Below are positions 22,914-64,000 of a stretch of DNA of 64,000 nucleotides, piece after piece. The stretch lies in the NCBI GenBank assembly GCA_965249555.1, contig OZ252243.1, forward strand, positions 2,144,001 through 2,208,000. Reading direction: 5' to 3'. A program made the translations under genes and the position numbers. This DNA comes from Nitrosopumilus sp. (GTDB taxonomy: Archaea; Thermoproteota; Nitrososphaeria; Nitrososphaerales; Nitrosopumilaceae). How positions within the stretch are numbered: position 1 is the first letter of the stretch; each line of letters opens with the position of its first letter. The notes beneath the pieces were generated by a model. It saw nothing but the letters and a program-made list of their open reading frames with translations. It was not told the origin of the DNA and ran no database searches.

Positions 22914-23255
22914 TCTCCCATACGAAATCATCTCCAATTACTGCAGACACAGTGTACTTTGTACAATCAGGATATCTTTGATCTGTTTCTTTTACTTGTG
23001 TCAGTTCATGATTTTGTGTATAATACACTTTCAGAGTTAGCATGTGCCCGGATTGTTGCAAGCATCCGGTCTTGCAGCTGCCACCTTTGTTTTCTTCTCT
23101 TTGCAATTCTGAAATAGAATGATTCCATTCTTTCATCAAATCGTACCATAGTATTTGCAGAGGATTTCGTATGGGGCATATATGAGATGTCCTGATTCAG
23201 CAAAGCACGCTAGGAAGTGTCCTCAGTAGGGTTGGAGACGATTTCGTATGGGAGA
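22914..23255 (-). mobile_element. Internally deleted IS/MITE with 24-bp terminal inverted repeats, probably IS1595-derived
   Basis: tctcccatacgaaatcatctccaa and ttggagacgatttcgtatgggaga; remnant IRAHANSESVLYT. Confidence 0.6.
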
Positions 23256-27297: not shown

Positions 27298-27653
27298 AAT
27301 CAGGGGTCTATTATAGTGACATAGACATGAAATCACAATCTTATTCAGATTCAAAAATTAAAATGGAATAAAAAGAATCAAAAGACGGTTCAGAGCAAAG
27401 CCTAATCATCACGATTGGCTTCAGACTAACGCTTTCTTTATTCCGGGATGGGAAAATAGGCTAATCTATCATGTCCCGAATCAAACACTTTTGGAAAATA
27501 CCCATAATATCGAAATTGGGATTTTCCATGTCCCTAATCAAACAGCAGGTGGAAGTGTCCCAAAGTTTGAACAGTACCATATTCTACCACTCGCAGATTA
27601 CACAGACGTTATACGAAATCTTTTTCATATCTTGTGATGTATACCTACTGTTG

Positions 27654-27770
27654 GGCCTGAGAGTTGAATGAATACTGCCATGTACAAGGACGTTACACAG
27701 ACTAACTCAAAGTGAGCGGAAAACAAAATACCACATAGATGGCAAATGGGAGCATTCCGCTAGATCAGGC
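27654..27770 (+). ncRNA. IS110 bridge-RNA-like structured region
   Basis: gcctga/tcaggc closes two stem-internal-loop-stem arms (gagtt/aactc; agcggaa/ttccgct) upstream of an IS110 ORF. Confidence 0.6.
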
Positions 27771-27797
27771 AATTTGATCAAAAAGGAGGTGATGGTA

Positions 27798-28087
27798 TGA
27801 TCAGCATAGGAATTGATGTTCACAAAATAAAATGTGTTGCAACAAAATAGGAATCCAGAAAGAAGCTAGAGCAGACAAGCTTTGATAATACCACAAATGG
27901 AATAATGGGTTTTATCAAACATATCAAAAAGACATATGGCAATGACATACAGGCAGTGTGCGAATCAACTGCAAACTATTGGATCAGACTACATGACACA
28001 CTAGAGGACCATGGAATTGATACAATTCTTGCACATCCTGCAAAGACCAAGATAATTGCACAGGCAAAGCTAAAAAACATACCATAA
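27798..28087 (+). pseudogene. IS110-family recombinase N-terminal fragment with in-frame TAG
   Basis: IGIDVHK and VCESTANYW; truncated before KxDxxD. Confidence 0.85.
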
Positions 28088-28095
28088 ATGGAAAA

Positions 28096-28314
28096 CTAGC
28101 GTGACTGAATTTCAGGTTTTGATTTTATTATTGCATTTATTGCTTCCTCTGGCATTGACTGAGAAAACAATACCTCAAATCCAACTGCTCTGCCATTTTC
28201 ATCTATATCCAAAAACCTGTCTTTACCAAGAGGGATAGTCTTTGATACTTTGGAATCCTCAGATATGCAAAAATAGGCTACTTTTGTCTGATTATCATAT
28301 CTTACTAAAGCCAA
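28096..28314 (-). CDS. DUF2283-family putative antitoxin
   Basis: YDNQTKVAYF...LDIDENGRAVGFEV. Confidence 0.8.
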   Translation of the reverse strand: MALVRYDNQTKVAYFCISEDSKVSKTIPLGKDRFLDIDENGRAVGFEVLFSQSMPEEAINAIIKSKPEIQSR

Positions 28315-28570
28315 TTGCTCTCAAGCCTCCTTTGTCAGTGTACATGGAAGTAATAACTACCATCTTTGTATTAAACTTGTTATATATCACAACCAAATAT
28401 GCCTGTCCATTAACTACTGGCTCATCTACGTTTGCAAAACTCTTGTAGTTTTGCCTATCTGAATCATAAATGGTTTCAGTGGGGCTGTTTATGATTTTTT
28501 GAATCAAATCCTTTGTGATGCCTCTTTCAATCATCCGTTTTAATGCATGATCACTAAATATAATTCTCAA
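28295..28570 (-). CDS. DUF4258-family putative RNase toxin
   Basis: FSDHALKRMIERGIT...VVITSM; paired with DUF2283. Confidence 0.8.
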   Translation of the reverse strand: MRIIFSDHALKRMIERGITKDLIQKIINSPTETIYDSDRQNYKSFANVDEPVVNGQAYLVVIYNKFNTKMVVITSMYTDKGGLRAIGFSKI

Positions 28571-28731: not shown

Positions 28732-29576
28732 ACCTACTGCCCCTAACATATACTTTAACAATAAATCAAACAAATTACCATCCCTGTTGTATCTCCATTC
28801 CATCTCTCTTGAGGTATGGTAAAAATTTGCCTGGACTCACTCCATGATGCTTGGGCATGTTCTCTTTGGCAAAACTCCAAAAGCCTTCAATTCCGTTAAT
28901 GTACACATCCCCTTTGCCAAACATCCTGCTGTGATCTATTGAGGATGTTTGTATCCATTGAACACAAGCGAGTCATATCCCTTCCATTTCTCAGTGTACA
29001 CAATGCTTCCTTTTCTGACCTTCTTGATGGTACTTGCAAGTAATGTTTTTGCTTTGACGTTATTTACAATCTCAACGTAAACCCTGCCGTTTCTCTCAAA
29101 TTCCAAACACAATGGTCTTGTTTTTGGCACCACGTCCACGATTTTCCTTTTCCTCCAGAATATGCCTAGTCAGTATTAATCTGGCCACGTAGGAACCTTG
29201 TTGGTATCTGCCACTTCTCAAGTATGGAATATCTGGCTGTATCAAGAGATGTATTGTGATTTGTGCATCTGTTCTGCAGTCTTTGCATGCACGGACTAGT
29301 GATTAGTGGGAACCATTTGGAATTCCAATTAATGGGAATTCGGATCTGGAATATGGTTTGAGATCTTTCTGGCATTTTGTGCATCTTTGTTCCTGCCTTT
29401 GGTACAGAAAGTTTTATTTTTGCAAAAAGTACGAAAAGGATTCTTGACGTATCTTGATTCCAGGAATTGTATTAATAATTCATCAGGGATTGTTTTTGCA
29501 AATGATGCAAAGTCAGTCCATTGTTTTTGTGAAATATTCCATAATAATCTTAGGGGTAGTAGATACCCAATCACCT
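28732..29576 (-). mobile_element. Degenerate IS1595-family element
   Basis: Fragmented homolog of 41293..42198 with end ttaggggtagtagatacccaatcacc. Confidence 0.8.
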
Positions 29577-29609: not shown

Positions 29610-32600
29610 CTAGTCATTCCAGCTAAGATCAGAGTCATCATATATCATACAGTCACACAGCATCTCCTGGGCCAGCATCTCCTGTATGGATAGTGATTCC
29701 AGCAATGCAGGATCTGATACCCTGTCCAGCCTTAATGGCATATCATATGAGAATGATTCATCCAAGGTTCCCTGAATTGCCTTACTATCAAAGATTAGGG
29801 TTGCCCTGTCCTGCTCATCAATTACCAGATTTGCAAAGTTTGAATGAATTCTAGTCATTACGCTTGTTGGCAGATCATCTCTTTGTTGCATATCAGGTCT
29901 TGTAATCTGCAACCAGGTGCCATAGTCATTTTGTGACCATATGTATCCATATTGGTCCTCCCAGACCTGGTAACGTCTGTCTTGCTGGGTCAGTGATATG
30001 GTCTCAAACGGATTCTGGTTGCCATGCTTTTGTTTTAACTCATGAGTTGCTGCTGCAAGTAATGCTTCACCTGTAAACTCTACACCTTCGTTGATATATG
30101 TGGTAGTAGAGTAACGTTGTTTGTCAACTGCATTAATTGCCAATACTTCATGGGATAATGGTGCCATTATTACAAATGATATGGTAACATCAAAGCACCT
30201 CTCTGCAGTATCTGATGATATGCATTTGACTTTGTCAATGGATGCACCAGTCATCTTCTCATTTACCAGTCCCTCTTTTTGCTCATGGACTATATCTGCA
30301 ATGTCATAGCCTGCAGGACTGGTATAGTTGCTATTTACATTTACTATAATGTGGGACTCTGCATTAGTTTTCAGGCCAATTTCTGGAACTCCAAGGGATA
30401 GGGATACCGACTTTAGGCCATTTGTTGCATAGCCTTTGATGTGGACTGTATTGTCATCACCAATAATGCTGCTAGTCAGATCAAAGTCAGTGTGCCAGTT
30501 GTTTGTAATGGTTAATGGCATGCCATTAAAGACAAAGCCGTCATCAACTAGCTGTACTGCCTGATTATTCCAATGTTTGCCAAAGGTTGGCTTTGTTTTC
30601 CATTCATTAGAATCTCCACCTTTTTTCTTTGGTGTGTCAGAAGGTATACTAGCGATGTCACCAGCTCCACTATCGTTGTCATCAGGATTTTGAGCAGTTA
30701 CTGTAACTGTTCTAGTTACTGTAACTGCAGAGTTTCCAGCCGCATCATCTACATCAAAGGTAACAGTGTAAGTATTAGCTACATTGGGATCAACTGTATC
30801 TACAACAACTACACCACTTGTGATATCCCCATCAGTGTTATCAGTTGCAGCAAAGGTGAATGCTGTGTATGTTTCTCCAAGTTCAATGGAGAATGATTCC
30901 TCATTGACTGTGATAGATGGTGCTGTGGTATCAAATGCTTCAGGTACAGGTTCACATATTTTATTATCTACACCAACACCCTTTACACAAACTTCATTAG
31001 CATCGTTTAGATCGATGATATTAGTATCAGTGATATGAAATTCATTTGATACTACAGTTGGAGTGAAAGTATCAGAATCACTACTACCGTCACTAATAGT
31101 AATAACATATTCATTGGAGATATTAGTTTCTATATTACTCCAGGATACTGTAACGGAATTATCAGCATTTCTTACAGCATCTACAGTTGGTGTTGCAGCT
31201 GTAGTTGCAGTAACCTCGTTAGAAGAAGCACTTGGTCCAACGGAATTTGTAGCTATAATGGTATACTTGTACTCTGTGTCTGCAGTCAGACCAGTATCAG
31301 TGGCAGCCAGTTCGGTGGTTTCTGATAGCACCGTTTCAGCAGGATTGTTTCCAAGGGTTCTGCTCAGGGTGTAGCTGTCGGCATTATCCACTGCAACCCA
31401 TGAAAGTGATATAGTTGTATCAGTGGTAGAGTCTACGACAAGTGCAGGAGTTGCAGGAGCTACTGGGGTATCAAGTGTAATGACTACAGGTAATGATGCA
31501 GTAGATATGTTTGGTCCATCAGATGCTCTTACAGTGAATGAGTTGGGACCTTCAGACAGTGCAACTGCTGCAAATGAGAAAGCACCTGTTCCATCGGCAG
31601 TTGTCGTACCAGCTGGTGTTGCTCCATTGAATAGTGTTATAGTTGTCCCGGCCTCAGCCGTACCATCAATTGTGATTGATGATGTATTGACAGTTGCAGA
31701 TGGCGTGGTAATTGTAGGAACTGGTGGTGGTGTGGTATCAACAGGTGGTACTTCTTCAGACGTTATATTATTATTATCTACAGCACCACCAACGGGATTA
31801 CCCTCAGAAAAACCAAATACACCAATTTCCTCAGCACTATTTGCTTTGTTAAAAAATGAATCATCTTTGGTAATATCATGTGGACTAGTGACAAGGTCAT
31901 CAATTAACTCAGGATCCTCACCTTCGTTAATTGCATAAATATTATAATCGGTACCAGGTATATTGCCCCAAGTTACTGTGATGGTATCAGTATCAGGTCT
32001 TGTAACTGTTACAAATGGTTCAGTTGGTGCAGCAGGTGGAGTTGGTGCTGCAAGTGTAGTTACAGACACGACATTAGAGGCGGCACTGTCTCCAGCTATA
32101 GACACTGCCCTTATGGAATAAGTATAAGTTGTTTCAGGTTCCAAGGTATCATCAGTGTATGATATCCCAGTCCCAGCGACGGGTATCTCAGTTGGTCCTG
32201 TGCCACCTGTTCTGCTCAGCGTATAACCAGTTGCACTAGTCTGCGCATCCCATGAGAGAACTACACTGTTATGAGTAGGGATTGCTGCAGTAAGTGCTGG
32301 GGTGCCAGGTACAGTCGATATGGATTCCCTTGCATATTCATGTCCACCAAATGAGATGACAACATCACCAATAAAGCCATGACCAGTTAGTAGTGCAATA
32401 AATGGGGTGAGACTACCTACCTCATTAGTAATAATAAGCCAGTCCACGCTCGGAGCACCTACTGCTTGAATCACAAATGTGCCTGCTCTTAATGGTACAA
32501 AGGATACAGTTACATCTCCATCATCACGTGCAGTAGCGATAAATGTGCCTGCCTTGATTGCCAGAGTCCTTGCAGACTGGCTTGCAACATCCTTACTGTC

Positions 32601-34512
32601 AAATGAGAGGGTTACATCACCATCAAATTCAAAGCCGACTGTTATTGTTTCCTCTTTTTCTACTGAATCTGATACATCCTCAGCTGAGACAACAACTGTA
32701 TCACTTGACTCACTAGATGTAATCGTGAATGTGCCTTCCTTTAAGGCTGTAAATTTCACAAGTAATGTGTCTGCAGCTGCCGGATTAGTAATCACGAAAG
32801 AGTCTGCCTTGATTGCCGGCGTTTCAACTGGTGCTGCAGTTGTAGATGCTGCAAACTCTGCAGAAGGAGTACTTGTCCCGGCAGCATTTGTTGCCACAAT
32901 GACATACTTGTAATTAGTTGAAGGAGTCAGGTTCCTATCTGTGGCAGACAATATATCGCCTGATTCCACCACTACATTAGCACCGCCATCAACAATTCTG
33001 GTTAAAGTGTAAGTTTCGGCATTCTCCACTGCACCCCATGCGAGCTCTATGGTATTATGAGTATTAGATGCAATACCAAGTGCGGGAGTAGCAGGTGGAG
33101 GTGGTGCAGGTCCAGTCGTTACATGTGCCCTTGCAACTTCAACTATATCAGATACTCTTTCTCTAAAGGAAATGATGACATTTTCATCAAAACCATAACC
33201 TATCGTTATTGTGGGTACAGATTTACGTGCATCTGTCTCACTACCACTAACAGATACAGTTACAGTTGCAATACGGGGATTATCATAATCAATAAAATAT
33301 GTACCGGCTTTTAGCGGTACAAAAGATATATCTATTTGATCGTCTCTGGAAGCATTCTTTTCAATAATAATAGTGGTGGCAAGGATTGCCGTCTGACTAC
33401 CTGTATAAGTTGGTGTTGCGGCACTAAAAGAGGCCGGTGCAGATGTGGTAGATACTTTAAAAAAAGCAGAGTCTGCTGTCTGGCCTACACTATTGCGTGC
33501 TATGACACGAAAAGTGTACTCTGTATCAGGAGTTAAACCATAATCAAGGAATGATGTATCAGCAGTAGTTCCTCGGTTCAAGCCGTCTCTATACACTGTG
33601 TATGATGAGGCACCATCCACCACACCCCATGTAATCTCAATGTTTGTCGAAAAGATCTCTCCTTGTACAATTATAGGAGGTTGAAGTTCAGTAGATATAT
33701 CCAGCGTATTAGACGGACCACTTTCCTGGCTATCAGAATTAAGTGATGTGACATGATAAGTGTAGGTTCCTGGAGTCAGAGCAGTTTCAGTGTATGATGT
33801 ATCGCTGGTAGTTGTTATGAGGGCATCACCTCTATACAGCCTGTATTGCTCGGCACCGTCTTCACGAGTCCATGTAACCTCAATGCTTGTTTCAGTGGTG
33901 CTTCCTTTGCTAATTGTAGGCGGTTCAGGTGCAGTTCTTACGGTTTTAGTGTCAAGTCTACTATCACCAAAAGAGAGTGTGACTGCACCATCATAATAAT
34001 ACCCGATTGATACTATAGTACTTGAGACACTTGTATCGCCAGGTGCAATGGTGACAGTTTTCTCACCTCCAATATAACCGATTATAAAATCGCCGGATAC
34101 CAGTGGCTTGAATGTTACAGTCACTGTATCAAGATTAGGTATGACATCAAAAGAGCCTGCCTCAATTGGAGCGGCTCCGGTTGTAGATACATCAATACTA
34201 TCAGACATCTGAGTGCCAAGAAGAAAGTGATGTCTTGTGACATGATATGTGTAATCTGTTCCAGAAGGCAGTCCATCATCAGTGTATGTGGTATCAGAAG
34301 TAGTGCCTATGCTAATATCATCTCGATAAACATTATAATCACTACTACCAAGTAATTCATCCCATTCAATCGTAATGGATGTTGCAGTGGGTTCCCCTAC
34401 TATTCTAATGTCACTGGGACTGGCACTTTGAGCCTCTGCACTTGCAAGAAGTGATATGGCAAACAGGACAACCCCCCCCCCCCACTAACGCATTAAATAA
34501 CATTTTATTCAT
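29610..34512 (-). CDS. Large fibronectin type III/Ig-like surface protein; signal peptide out of frame at a G12 tract
   Basis: Multiple FN3 repeats (W..Y..L.P.T.Y), a DUF5011-like domain; the frame extends upstream of 34208 to the poly-G, and ATG 34512 is 1 nt out of frame. Confidence 0.85.
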
Positions 34513-38326: not shown

Positions 38327-38740
38327 ATGGAAGATGGAAAAATAGCTATTACAAACAAGATTGAAGATATACAAATAAACCTTAAAAGTGCCAATTATTC
38401 TGTATGTAGTAAAATTTCTCACAATTTAGTGAATTTTGCATGTAATCTAGAATTAGAAGAAGAGACATTCATAAGTGAAATTTTAGAAAATGTATTTAGT
38501 AATTTGATAGACTTGTATAATTATGAAATTCCAAAAGAAGTCAAAGAAAAAATAAATTTAGACATATCTGAAAAAATTCGATTTATAGCAGAGGCATACA
38601 ATGCAAAAGATCCTAATCAACTATATGAACGTCTAAAACAATTGCGTTATATTACAACACAGCATCAATTGAATGTGTGGCAAAATTATGATGTTTCATC
38701 AAAACTTCCACGACATATGATGAAATGGAAGGAGGAATAA
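38327..38740 (+). CDS. Hypothetical helical protein
   Basis: ORF in an operon with the next gene. Confidence 0.6.
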   Translation: MEDGKIAITNKIEDIQINLKSANYSVCSKISHNLVNFACNLELEEETFISEILENVFSNLIDLYNYEIPKEVKEKINLDISEKIRFIAEAYNAKDPNQLYERLKQLRYITTQHQLNVWQNYDVSSKLPRHMMKWKEE

Positions 38741-63330: not shown

Positions 63331-63518
63331 ATCATGGCTCTGGTCAATCTAGGTGATCTGACATAATATAGGGATGCGGATCTCTCTGAATTGAATTTCA
63401 TGCTGAACTTTCCCCATACAGATCACCAAAACTATACAGTACATATTTTGGGAAATTCCGACTTGATAGACGTTATACGAAATCTTTTTCCCATCTTGTG
63501 ATGTATACCTACTGTTGG

Positions 63519-63635
63519 GCCTGAGAGTTGAATGAATACTGCCATGTACAAGGGCGTTTGATAGACTAACTCAAAGTGAGCGGAAAACAAAATACCACAT
63601 AGATGGTGAATGGGAGCATTCCGCTAGATCAGGCA
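63519..63635 (+). ncRNA. IS110 bridge-RNA-like structured region, copy 2
   Basis: Homologous to 27654..27770 with a different loop sequence. Confidence 0.6.
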
Positions 63636-63660
63636 ATTTGATCAAAAAGGAGGTGATAAT

Positions 63661-64000
63661 ATGATCAGCATAGGAATTGATGTTCACAAGAAGAAATGTG
63701 TTGCAACAAAATAGGAATCCAGAAAGAAGCTAGAGCAGACAAGCTTTGATAATACCACAAATGGAATAATGGGTTTTATCAAACATATCAAAAAGACATA
63801 TGGCAATGACATACAGGCAGTGTGCGAATCAACTGCAAACTATTGGATCAGACTACATGACACACTAGAGGACCATGGAATTGATACAATTCTTGCACAT
63901 CCTGCAAAGACCAAGATAATTGCACAGGCAAAGCTCAAAAACGACAAACTTGATTCAGACGTATTGGCAGACTTGCTAAGAGCAGACATGGTGTATGAAT
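63661..64000 (+). pseudogene. IS110-family recombinase with in-frame TAG at codon 18; runs off the window
   Basis: IGIDVHK, CEST and KNDKLD DEDD motifs. Confidence 0.85.

Follow-up and report, generated by a model that had tools for sequence, protein, structure and literature searches.

The IS110 family is a known RNA-guided family of insertion sequences. In the RNA of IS621, the 5′ strand of each loop carries the left half in the sense orientation, and complementarity to the right half resides in the 3′ strand (PMC11208160; PMC11208158). RNAs of the IS1111 type are described as carrying the top-strand complement first, the IS110 type showing the reverse order, and IS1111 elements as possessing subterminal repeats of 7–17 bp and a non-coding region located downstream, an upstream position being a rare exception (ISMtsp17, for example; PMC11187229). 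That such guides are retargeted in nature has been published before: it has been reported between ISEc11 and ISXne4, the transposases of which are 72% identical (Siddiquee et al., 2024; PMC11187229), and natural guides have been binned against target motifs (Durrant et al., 2024; PMC11208160). A match between loop and flank is an expected property of this family and no new mechanism is reported here; what is new is a well-resolved archaeal member. Among the matches listed, no paper dealt with IS110 elements or bridge RNAs in ammonia-oxidising archaea; the supplementary tables of the 2024 papers may list the family.

The window, by which we mean the whole stretch of 64,000 nucleotides of Nitrosopumilus sp. 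DNA that was analysed, belongs to a genome (G000) of 2.23 Mb and 34.4% G+C in a single contig, which an archaeal SSU rRNA model matches over its full length (1455.8 bits). It carries two copies of an archaeal IS110-family insertion sequence of approximately 1.32 kb with a DEDD transposase, the named relatives of which come from Nitrosotenuis, Nitrosotalea and Nitrosopumilaceae. The copies in G000 are broken but align to open relatives in sister genomes, L043 (G152) and L035 (G097), in both of which the PF01548 and PF02371 domains are found (E = 3.6e-19 and 1.8e-28, respectively, in L043). Both relatives also exceed the cut-off of 140 bits for NF033542, ‘IS110 family RNA-guided transposase’ (241.5 bits for L043 and 222.9 bits for L035), and the C-terminal part of L043 matches the IS621 transposase chain 8wt6 (E = 1.5e-18).

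Judged from its sequence, the element looks like an IS1111-type insertion sequence with an upstream RNA, a reading adopted because of its guide order and its subterminal repeats of 8–10 bp, despite the position of the RNA. It shares with the described members of the IS1111 group and their seekRNAs (ISEc11, ISKpn4 and ISPa11) a DEDD transposase, targets that lie in other repeats and subterminal repeats that fall between 7 and 17 bp (10 bp in the present element, 8 bp in that of genome G002). As in that group, the top-strand complement (GAATACT, leader positions 67–73) lies 5′ of the top-strand match (TTGATAG, positions 91–97), the two overlapping at the insertion point; leader positions are counted throughout from the A of the core dinucleotide AG. 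The IS1111 motif GL-P----S(T)G reads GLAPKHRNSG in L043 and GLAPSHRDSA in the G000 pseudogenes, and a plasmid tblastn search for subgroup naming returned generic ‘IS110 family’ names only. In contrast to the IS1111 elements as described, the RNA and a long non-coding region lie upstream of the transposase gene and the right end following the gene is short. The element also differs in residing in an archaeal host and in that the retargeting concerns copies that are approximately 95% identical within one genome.

The accounts of IS621 (PMC11208160; PMC11208158) offer a second comparison. As in IS621, the RNA is encoded upstream and has two internal-loop arms, target first and donor second; the strands would pair through a 2 bp core that reads CT on one strand, and the target loop is variable while the donor loop is conserved. 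In the target loop, the two post-core bases on the 3′ side agree with the donor, as in the handshake guide (PMC11208158). However, the strand order is inverted in both arms, and the IS621 layout is recovered only by reading target and donor on the strand that does not encode the RNA and transposase, on which the core is CT. The 8–10 bp subterminal repeats also differ from those of 2–3 bp given for IS621, and the 5′ guide of arm 2 stops short of the core. ISPpu9 of Pseudomonas putida (PMC12288879) is likewise an IS110-family element with an RNA module that also occurs without a transposase; compared with the separately mobile small-RNA modules described there, the transposase-less forms found here are 489 bp internal-deletion derivatives in genome G149, outside the window. 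The ISPpu9 paper was the only literature match found for guide-carrying miniature elements.

The family offers a natural record of bridge/seek guide evolution on a short time scale, with many near-identical copies bearing different loops within one genus, and a clean one in that empty sites are kept and both target halves change together. Naturally intact relatives exist (L065 in G149, L043 in G152 and L035 in G097). The inverted guide order combined with an upstream RNA is useful for the determinants of strand order, and the co-resident variants for cis versus trans guide action. For annotation, the element accounts for a large set of repeats and pseudogenes in genomes of the ammonia-oxidiser type.

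The two copies and the fold of their leader

The preliminary description had singled out two near-identical copies in each of which a stretch of flank recurs in a loop of the leader. Both identities hold. The sequence TTACACAGAC occurs exactly twice in the window, at 27598–27607 and 27693–27702 (0.25 occurrences expected by chance), and TTGATAGAC occurs at 63463–63471 and 63558–63566 (0.79 expected), with one further, unrelated site at 38504. The copies are 97% identical over their common 475 bp and their leaders 95% identical. Homology between them begins at AGACGTTATACG (27604 in copy 1 and 63468 in copy 2), so that each match ends in four bases (AGAC) that belong to core and element, the genuine flank within the matches being only TTACAC in copy 1 and TTGAT in copy 2. 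The features of the two copies, all on the + strand, are as follows.

27598–27605: copy 1, left target half TTACAC and core AG
27604–28078: copy 1, truncated 5′ fragment (element positions 1–475) with core AG, left end, leader and the first 94 or so transposase codons
27611–27620: copy 1, left subterminal inverted repeat ATACGAAATC, matched in full copies by GATTTCGTAT at a distance of 5 bp from the right end
27655–27770: copy 1, predicted guide RNA core, closing stem GCCUGA/UCAGGC around two stem/internal-loop arms (centroid fold and pair counts)
27670–27676: copy 1, arm 1 5′ guide GAATACT, reverse complement of AG+TATTC
27693–27702: copy 1, arm 1 3′ guide TTACAC+AG+AC (left half, core and the first two bases of the element)
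27720–27724: copy 1, arm 2 5′ donor guide AAAAC, pairing with GTTAT at left-end positions +3 to +7 (covariation in three lineages)
27746–27752: copy 1, arm 2 3′ donor guide ATGGGAG (the five terminal bases at the right end, then the core)
27797–28078: copy 1, transposase remnant with in-frame TAG at 27848–27850
63463–63469: copy 2, left target half TTGAT and core AG; three unoccupied sites read gacttgatAGtattcaag
63468–64000: copy 2, first 533 bp of a 1320 bp full-length copy
63519–63634: copy 2, predicted guide RNA core (fold, pair counts and covariance model R1)
63534–63540: copy 2, arm 1 5′ guide GAATACT, exact reverse complement of core and right flank AGTATTC
63558–63566: copy 2, arm 1 3′ guide TTGAT+AG+AC
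63584–63588: copy 2, arm 2 5′ donor guide AAAAC
63610–63616: copy 2, arm 2 3′ donor guide ATGGGAG
63661–64000: copy 2, transposase pseudogene with in-frame TAG at 63712–63714, its frame also disturbed near the C-terminus past the window

Copy 1 shows 97% identity to query positions 68–542 of the full-length copy (blastn), homology stopping at 28078, and as a truncated copy it has no right flank of its own. Because its flank and element (with 100 bp of flank) are duplicated at genome position 2092217, copy 1 is not an independent insertion. Copy 2 continues for 787 bp beyond the window end, where its right flank reads AG-tattcaag. Two further pieces of the family were located in the window by blastn.

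22915–23160, − strand: solo fragment from the right end of a divergent copy (81% identical)
23175–23254, + strand: solo 80 bp right-end fragment with right flank AG-aacc

Directly past the truncation of copy 1, a pair of small genes on the − strand (28099–28570) encodes DUF2283 (E = 7.4e-8) and DUF4258 (E = 6.2e-8) proteins and resembles a toxin–antitoxin pair. Fragments of an IS1595 (ISXO2-like) transposase (PF12762, E = 1e-8) lie in several short frames at 28778–29139 (−), followed at 29610–34208 (−) by the gene for a 1532-residue protein with many repeated Ser/Thr-rich modules of approximately 90 residues, which by its sequence looks like a surface or adhesin-type protein.

The leader is approximately 190 nt long and lies upstream of the transposase gene. 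Its centroid fold, together with an alignment to a 73%-identical sister element from genome G002, gives a closing stem and two stem/internal-loop arms. In 13 sequences 84.5% of the cells can pair, compared with at most 47.7% when the partners are slid, and three helices show compensatory changes, although this covariation is drawn from no more than about three lineages. In single-sequence folding the leader reached a minimum free energy no better than that of shuffled sequences (z = −0.78), and the centroid structure and the covariation were relied upon instead. A scan of the leader against Rfam gave four matches at chance level (snoRNA and lncRNA families), all far below the cut-offs. The covariance model R1 scores 160.9 bits on the guide RNA core of copy 1 and 167.7 bits on that of copy 2. 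Both structural statements made earlier from the letters alone, that the leader folds into two internal-loop arms and that the match lies on the 3′ side of a loop, here the first, are borne out by the centroid fold and pair counts. These observations support the assignment of the leader as a putative two-arm bridge/seek RNA of an IS110-family element.

Guides, element ends and insertion sites

The left end of the element reads AG followed by ACGTTATACGAAATC and the right end GATTTCGTATGGG followed by AG, with the 10 bp subterminal inverted repeat ATACGAAATC/GATTTCGTAT; the corresponding repeat in the G002 lineage is 8 bp long (CATGTGTT/AACACATG). Copies mostly sit in other repeated elements. 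Copy 2 lies inside such a host element, three unoccupied copies of which read gacttgatAGtattcaag, and its target comprises 12 bp, both arm 1 strands matching exactly (5+2+5 bp). Empty sites are also available for flank families D (ttacacA[A/G]ttataat), E (attgacAGattcaatgactc) and H. An occupied site differs from its empty form by nothing but the element, a single AG being shared; the element is therefore inserted at the shared AG without other duplication.

Whether the loop–flank match represents a target or a donor guide had been left open in the preliminary description, in which the other three guides were not found. The match is the target guide for the left target half, and the arm 1 5′, arm 2 5′ and arm 2 3′ guides are now located. 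The 3′ strand of arm 1 (positions 90–99) carries the left flank, AG and AC, and the two bases following the core are identical to those that open the element in 40/46 junctions, including AT/AT in G081. The 5′ strand of arm 1 (positions 67–73), GAATACT, is the reverse complement of AG+TATTC, the core and right flank of copy 2. The 3′ strand of arm 2 (positions 143–149), ATGGGAG, equals the right end and core and is invariant in nearly all lineages. The 5′ strand of arm 2 (positions 117–121) reads AAAAC here, AAAGC in G149, G097 and G081 and ATGGT in G002 and G152, and left-end positions +3 to +7 read GTTAT, GCTAT and GCCAT, respectively, in the matching lineages; across these three lineages two positions covary and one forms a G–U pair. 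This guide does not pair with the core and has one A–A mismatch in the G000 lineage. A 5′ strand complementary to AG and the start of the left end (approximately AACGTCT) was sought and no such sequence is present; the arm 2 5′ guide is recognised through covariation across lineages only.

Contiguous pairing of another 5′ guide, GGTTACT, with the common right flank AG-AACC fails by one base. In G155 and G154, GGGTT-A-CT faces AG-AACCC, and 5/5 elements match at four or more of five positions. In this sub-lineage, therefore, the A would remain unpaired unless the flank starts with T, a model that applies to the GGGTTACT guide against the AG-AACCC flank.

A loop segment that reads exactly as an insertion junction (flank, AG, AC) could also be a fossil junction, consisting of left flank and element start, left by an old nested insertion and devoid of guide function; indeed, one copy in G149 (L044) did insert in another leader right after the 3′-guide segment. 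The segment, however, occupies a fixed position within a conserved, covarying structure in 12/12 genomes, is accompanied by a second strand complementary to the right flank and has its analogue in arm 2, which matches the element's own ends. A fossil origin therefore retains almost no probability, and we continue with the reading as a guide.

Guide variation and matching to the flanks

With copy 2 as query, blastn detected eight full-length copies of approximately 1.28–1.32 kb in G000 together with dozens of fragments. All eight carry stops or frameshifts, and a genome-wide search of G000 found no stop-free frame of at least 250 residues with a GIDVHK-type motif. Since every copy is a pseudogene, the element family is dead in G000; the least decayed is copy 2, which has a TAG at codon 18 and a disrupted C-terminus. 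This in-frame TAG allele (ATK*ESR for ATIKRESR) occurs in the window at 27848–27850 and 63712–63714 and in copies 851547, 860913 and 2215210. Pyrrolysine insertion or read-through at the TAG was considered and is out, as other copies read ATIKRESR there and all have further frameshifts. The same allele is common to copies from flank families A, B and D, which are unrelated to one another; the stop must therefore have preceded the dispersal of these copies, whether that took place through mobilisation in trans, gene conversion or duplication.

Variability of the guides was measured in 13 full leaders from G000, the duplicate copy 860913 having been dropped. The two arm 1 guide segments show nucleotide diversities of 0.20 and 0.22, compared with 0.0245 in the other 177 leader columns. 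Variability is thus eight to nine times higher in the guide columns than elsewhere in the leader, and only 10 of 20,000 random window pairs reach such diversity. At least five classes of 3′ guide (TACAC, TTGAT, TTGAC, CCAAC and TTAAC/TTCAC) and four or five classes of 5′ guide are present in G000.

For guide–flank comparisons, junctions sharing both the flank (two or fewer differences in 12 nt) and the guide were merged; across all genomes, 57 junctions thereby became 45 events. Within G000, the left flank matched the 3′ guide at 53 of 75 positions against 50.7 in permutations (p = 0.31; 15 independent events), four events matching at 5/5, four at 4/5, three at 3/5 and four at 2/5 positions; the right flank matched the 5′ guide no better than chance (p = 0.39; seven events). 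Two copies are reciprocally swapped, 2215210 carrying guide TTGAT in a TTACAC site and 540538 guide TACAC in a TTGAT site, and in several full-length copies the two flanks derive from different sites. To judge from the flank tables, all eight full-length copies show a reasonable match to one half-site or more.

Model R1 was searched against 151 genomes of the genus and found the guide RNA in 12 of them; the loci inspected numbered 26, to which 17 further regions of G149 were added. Left guides matched to their own flanks occur in three variants in G002 (GCGAA, GCAAA and TCAAA), two in G152 (GCATA and TAGTT) and at least four in G149 (TTTAT, CTTAT, TCAGT and CAAAC, with L066 a clear exception), and the single G081 copy examined has an 11-base match to its left flank (GGGCAACAGAT). 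On the right side, CACGAACT faces AG-TTCGTG in G002, TGCAA-CT faces AG-TTGCA in L043 of G152, and ATGAT-CT and GGAA-CT face AG-ATCAT and AG-TTCC, respectively, in G149. Both halves differ between L043 and L031 of G152 (TAGTT and TGCAA versus GCATA and ACGAA), and the guides of L043 match its own flanks; as far as sequences can tell, this pair is a complete retargeting. The permutation tests treat deduplicated junctions as independent, and since copies are related the significance in the following comparisons is somewhat inflated. Over 42 deduplicated junctions from seven genomes, the left flank and 3′ guide matched at 173 positions against 141.4 expected from within-genome permutations (p = 5e-5), with 55 against 34.1 in G149 alone (p = 0.0006; 13 events) and p = 0.029 when five further genomes were pooled (14 events). 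For the right flank and 5′ guide, 23 junctions gave 80 matched positions against 71.1 expected (p = 0.012), and G149 alone gave p = 0.024.

The preliminary description had proposed natural guide reprogramming between very close relatives, to be checked by guide–flank covariation across copies. The observation from which it started is confirmed, and the proposal is supported in the sister genomes G002, G152 and G149 and in the pooled set, but not from G000 alone (p = 0.31): the covariation is significant in G149 and over the seven genomes and at chance level in G000. The result for G000 is what would be seen if the protein itself set a site preference (approximately TTNAC-AG) and the loops differed by neutral decay, with flank matches arising by chance. 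Most G000 left flanks do fit a loose consensus TT(A/G/T)(A/C)AC, matching is at the permuted level on both sides, and all G000 copies are pseudogenes and so free to drift. Decay, however, would not pile up eight- to ninefold in two short loop strands, and the sister targets differ from this consensus and from each other with both strands matching (GCGAA-AG-TTCGTG, TAGTT-AG-TTGCA, TCAGT-AG-TTCC and GGGCAAC-AG). With the permutation results for G149 and overall added, a purely protein-set preference appears extremely improbable.

The window copies themselves might owe their loop–flank identity to the copying of composite repeats and to rearrangement between copies, with little or no retargeted transposition of their own. 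Copy 1 and 100 bp of its flank are indeed duplicated at 2092217, flank families A and D are repeats that occur with and without the insertion sequence, copies 1239170, 2215210, 1915801 and 540538 have right flanks foreign to their left flanks, and the TAG allele is common to families A, B and D. Against this, copy 2 and copy 851547 lie at sites with known empty forms and fit their own guides on both halves (12/12 for copy 2; 7/8 and 8/8 for copy 851547). Moreover, at least five guide classes are spread over 12 or more unrelated flanks, a distribution that duplication alone would not produce and that calls for transposition. Composite copying is accordingly a very unlikely account of the window copies, and retargeting through arm 1 is preferred.

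Proposed mechanism and related observations

The observations are very probably best explained by copies of an IS110-family element that carry a bridge/seek RNA and are retargeted by mutations in arm 1. In the proposed scheme, arm 1 would read the target: its 3′ strand, the left half and AG in the sense orientation, would pair with the bottom strand, its two bases after the core, which are those of the element start, may act in the manner of a handshake guide, and its 5′ strand would pair with AG and the right target half, to which it is complementary. Arm 2 would read the joined ends of the element, the 3′ strand corresponding to the right end and AG and the 5′ strand being complementary to left-end positions +3 to +7. 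The RNA would thereby bring the target and the joined element ends together, and recombination at AG (CT on the opposite strand) would give insertion without duplication beyond the shared core. Mutations in both arm 1 strands would redirect the element, for which reason copies approximately 95% identical would be found with different guides in different sites. Production of the RNA, its binding by the transposase and the geometry of the pairing are presumed in this scheme. Mismatched copies may reflect guidance in trans by the RNAs of co-resident copies, half-site insertion, which a 2026 preprint describes for IS621 (10.64898/2026.08.31.748434), or later rearrangement or recombination between copies.

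A further suggestion, which we regard as rather doubtful, is that the element represents a distinct architectural subclass in which IS1111-type order, long repeats and a 5′-encoded RNA are combined with a cis-preferring guide RNA and, in some lineages, a frame that starts at the ATG of the donor guide. Cis-preference would explain why co-resident guide classes sit mostly in their own targets. If this were true, guide-carrying miniature elements such as the 489 bp forms of G149 would program their own destinations and borrow the enzyme.

In several relatives (L043, L035 of G097 and L040 and L028 of G155), the transposase frame is open back to an ATG inside the arm 2 3′ guide (AATGGGAG), giving a protein that begins MG(V/A)FR. 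In L043 of G152 (426–1541, − strand) the usual start reads ACG, and no standard start (ATG, GTG or TTG) was seen in the frame apart from the one inside the guide. A 372-residue form starting at the guide ATG is present in public annotation (P0001). In G000, a TAG closes the upstream extension to the guide ATG.

Genome G149 contains 1338 bp copies with an open frame of 376 residues (L065) as well as the 489 bp internal-deletion derivatives (L058, L034, L055, L060 and L062), in which the left 383 bp is joined to the right 112 bp. The derivatives keep the guide RNA and have guide classes YTTAT and CAAAC, compared with TCAGT in most long copies. At the right junction of L044 a short copy is inserted in the leader of another copy, directly after the 3′-guide DNA; by its sequence, this junction makes the guide-coding DNA itself a half target.

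A second IS110-family element, with a protein approximately 29% identical, has many copies in G000 (193317–194303, 709467–710453, 282326–283312 and others, all outside the window), and flank family E (attgacAGattcaatgactc) is a target site inside it. In G155, the left flank of L040 (143–1579, − strand) lies at the end of a 478-residue frame with CxxC pairs, which from its sequence looks like a protein of the IS605 OrfB/TnpB type.
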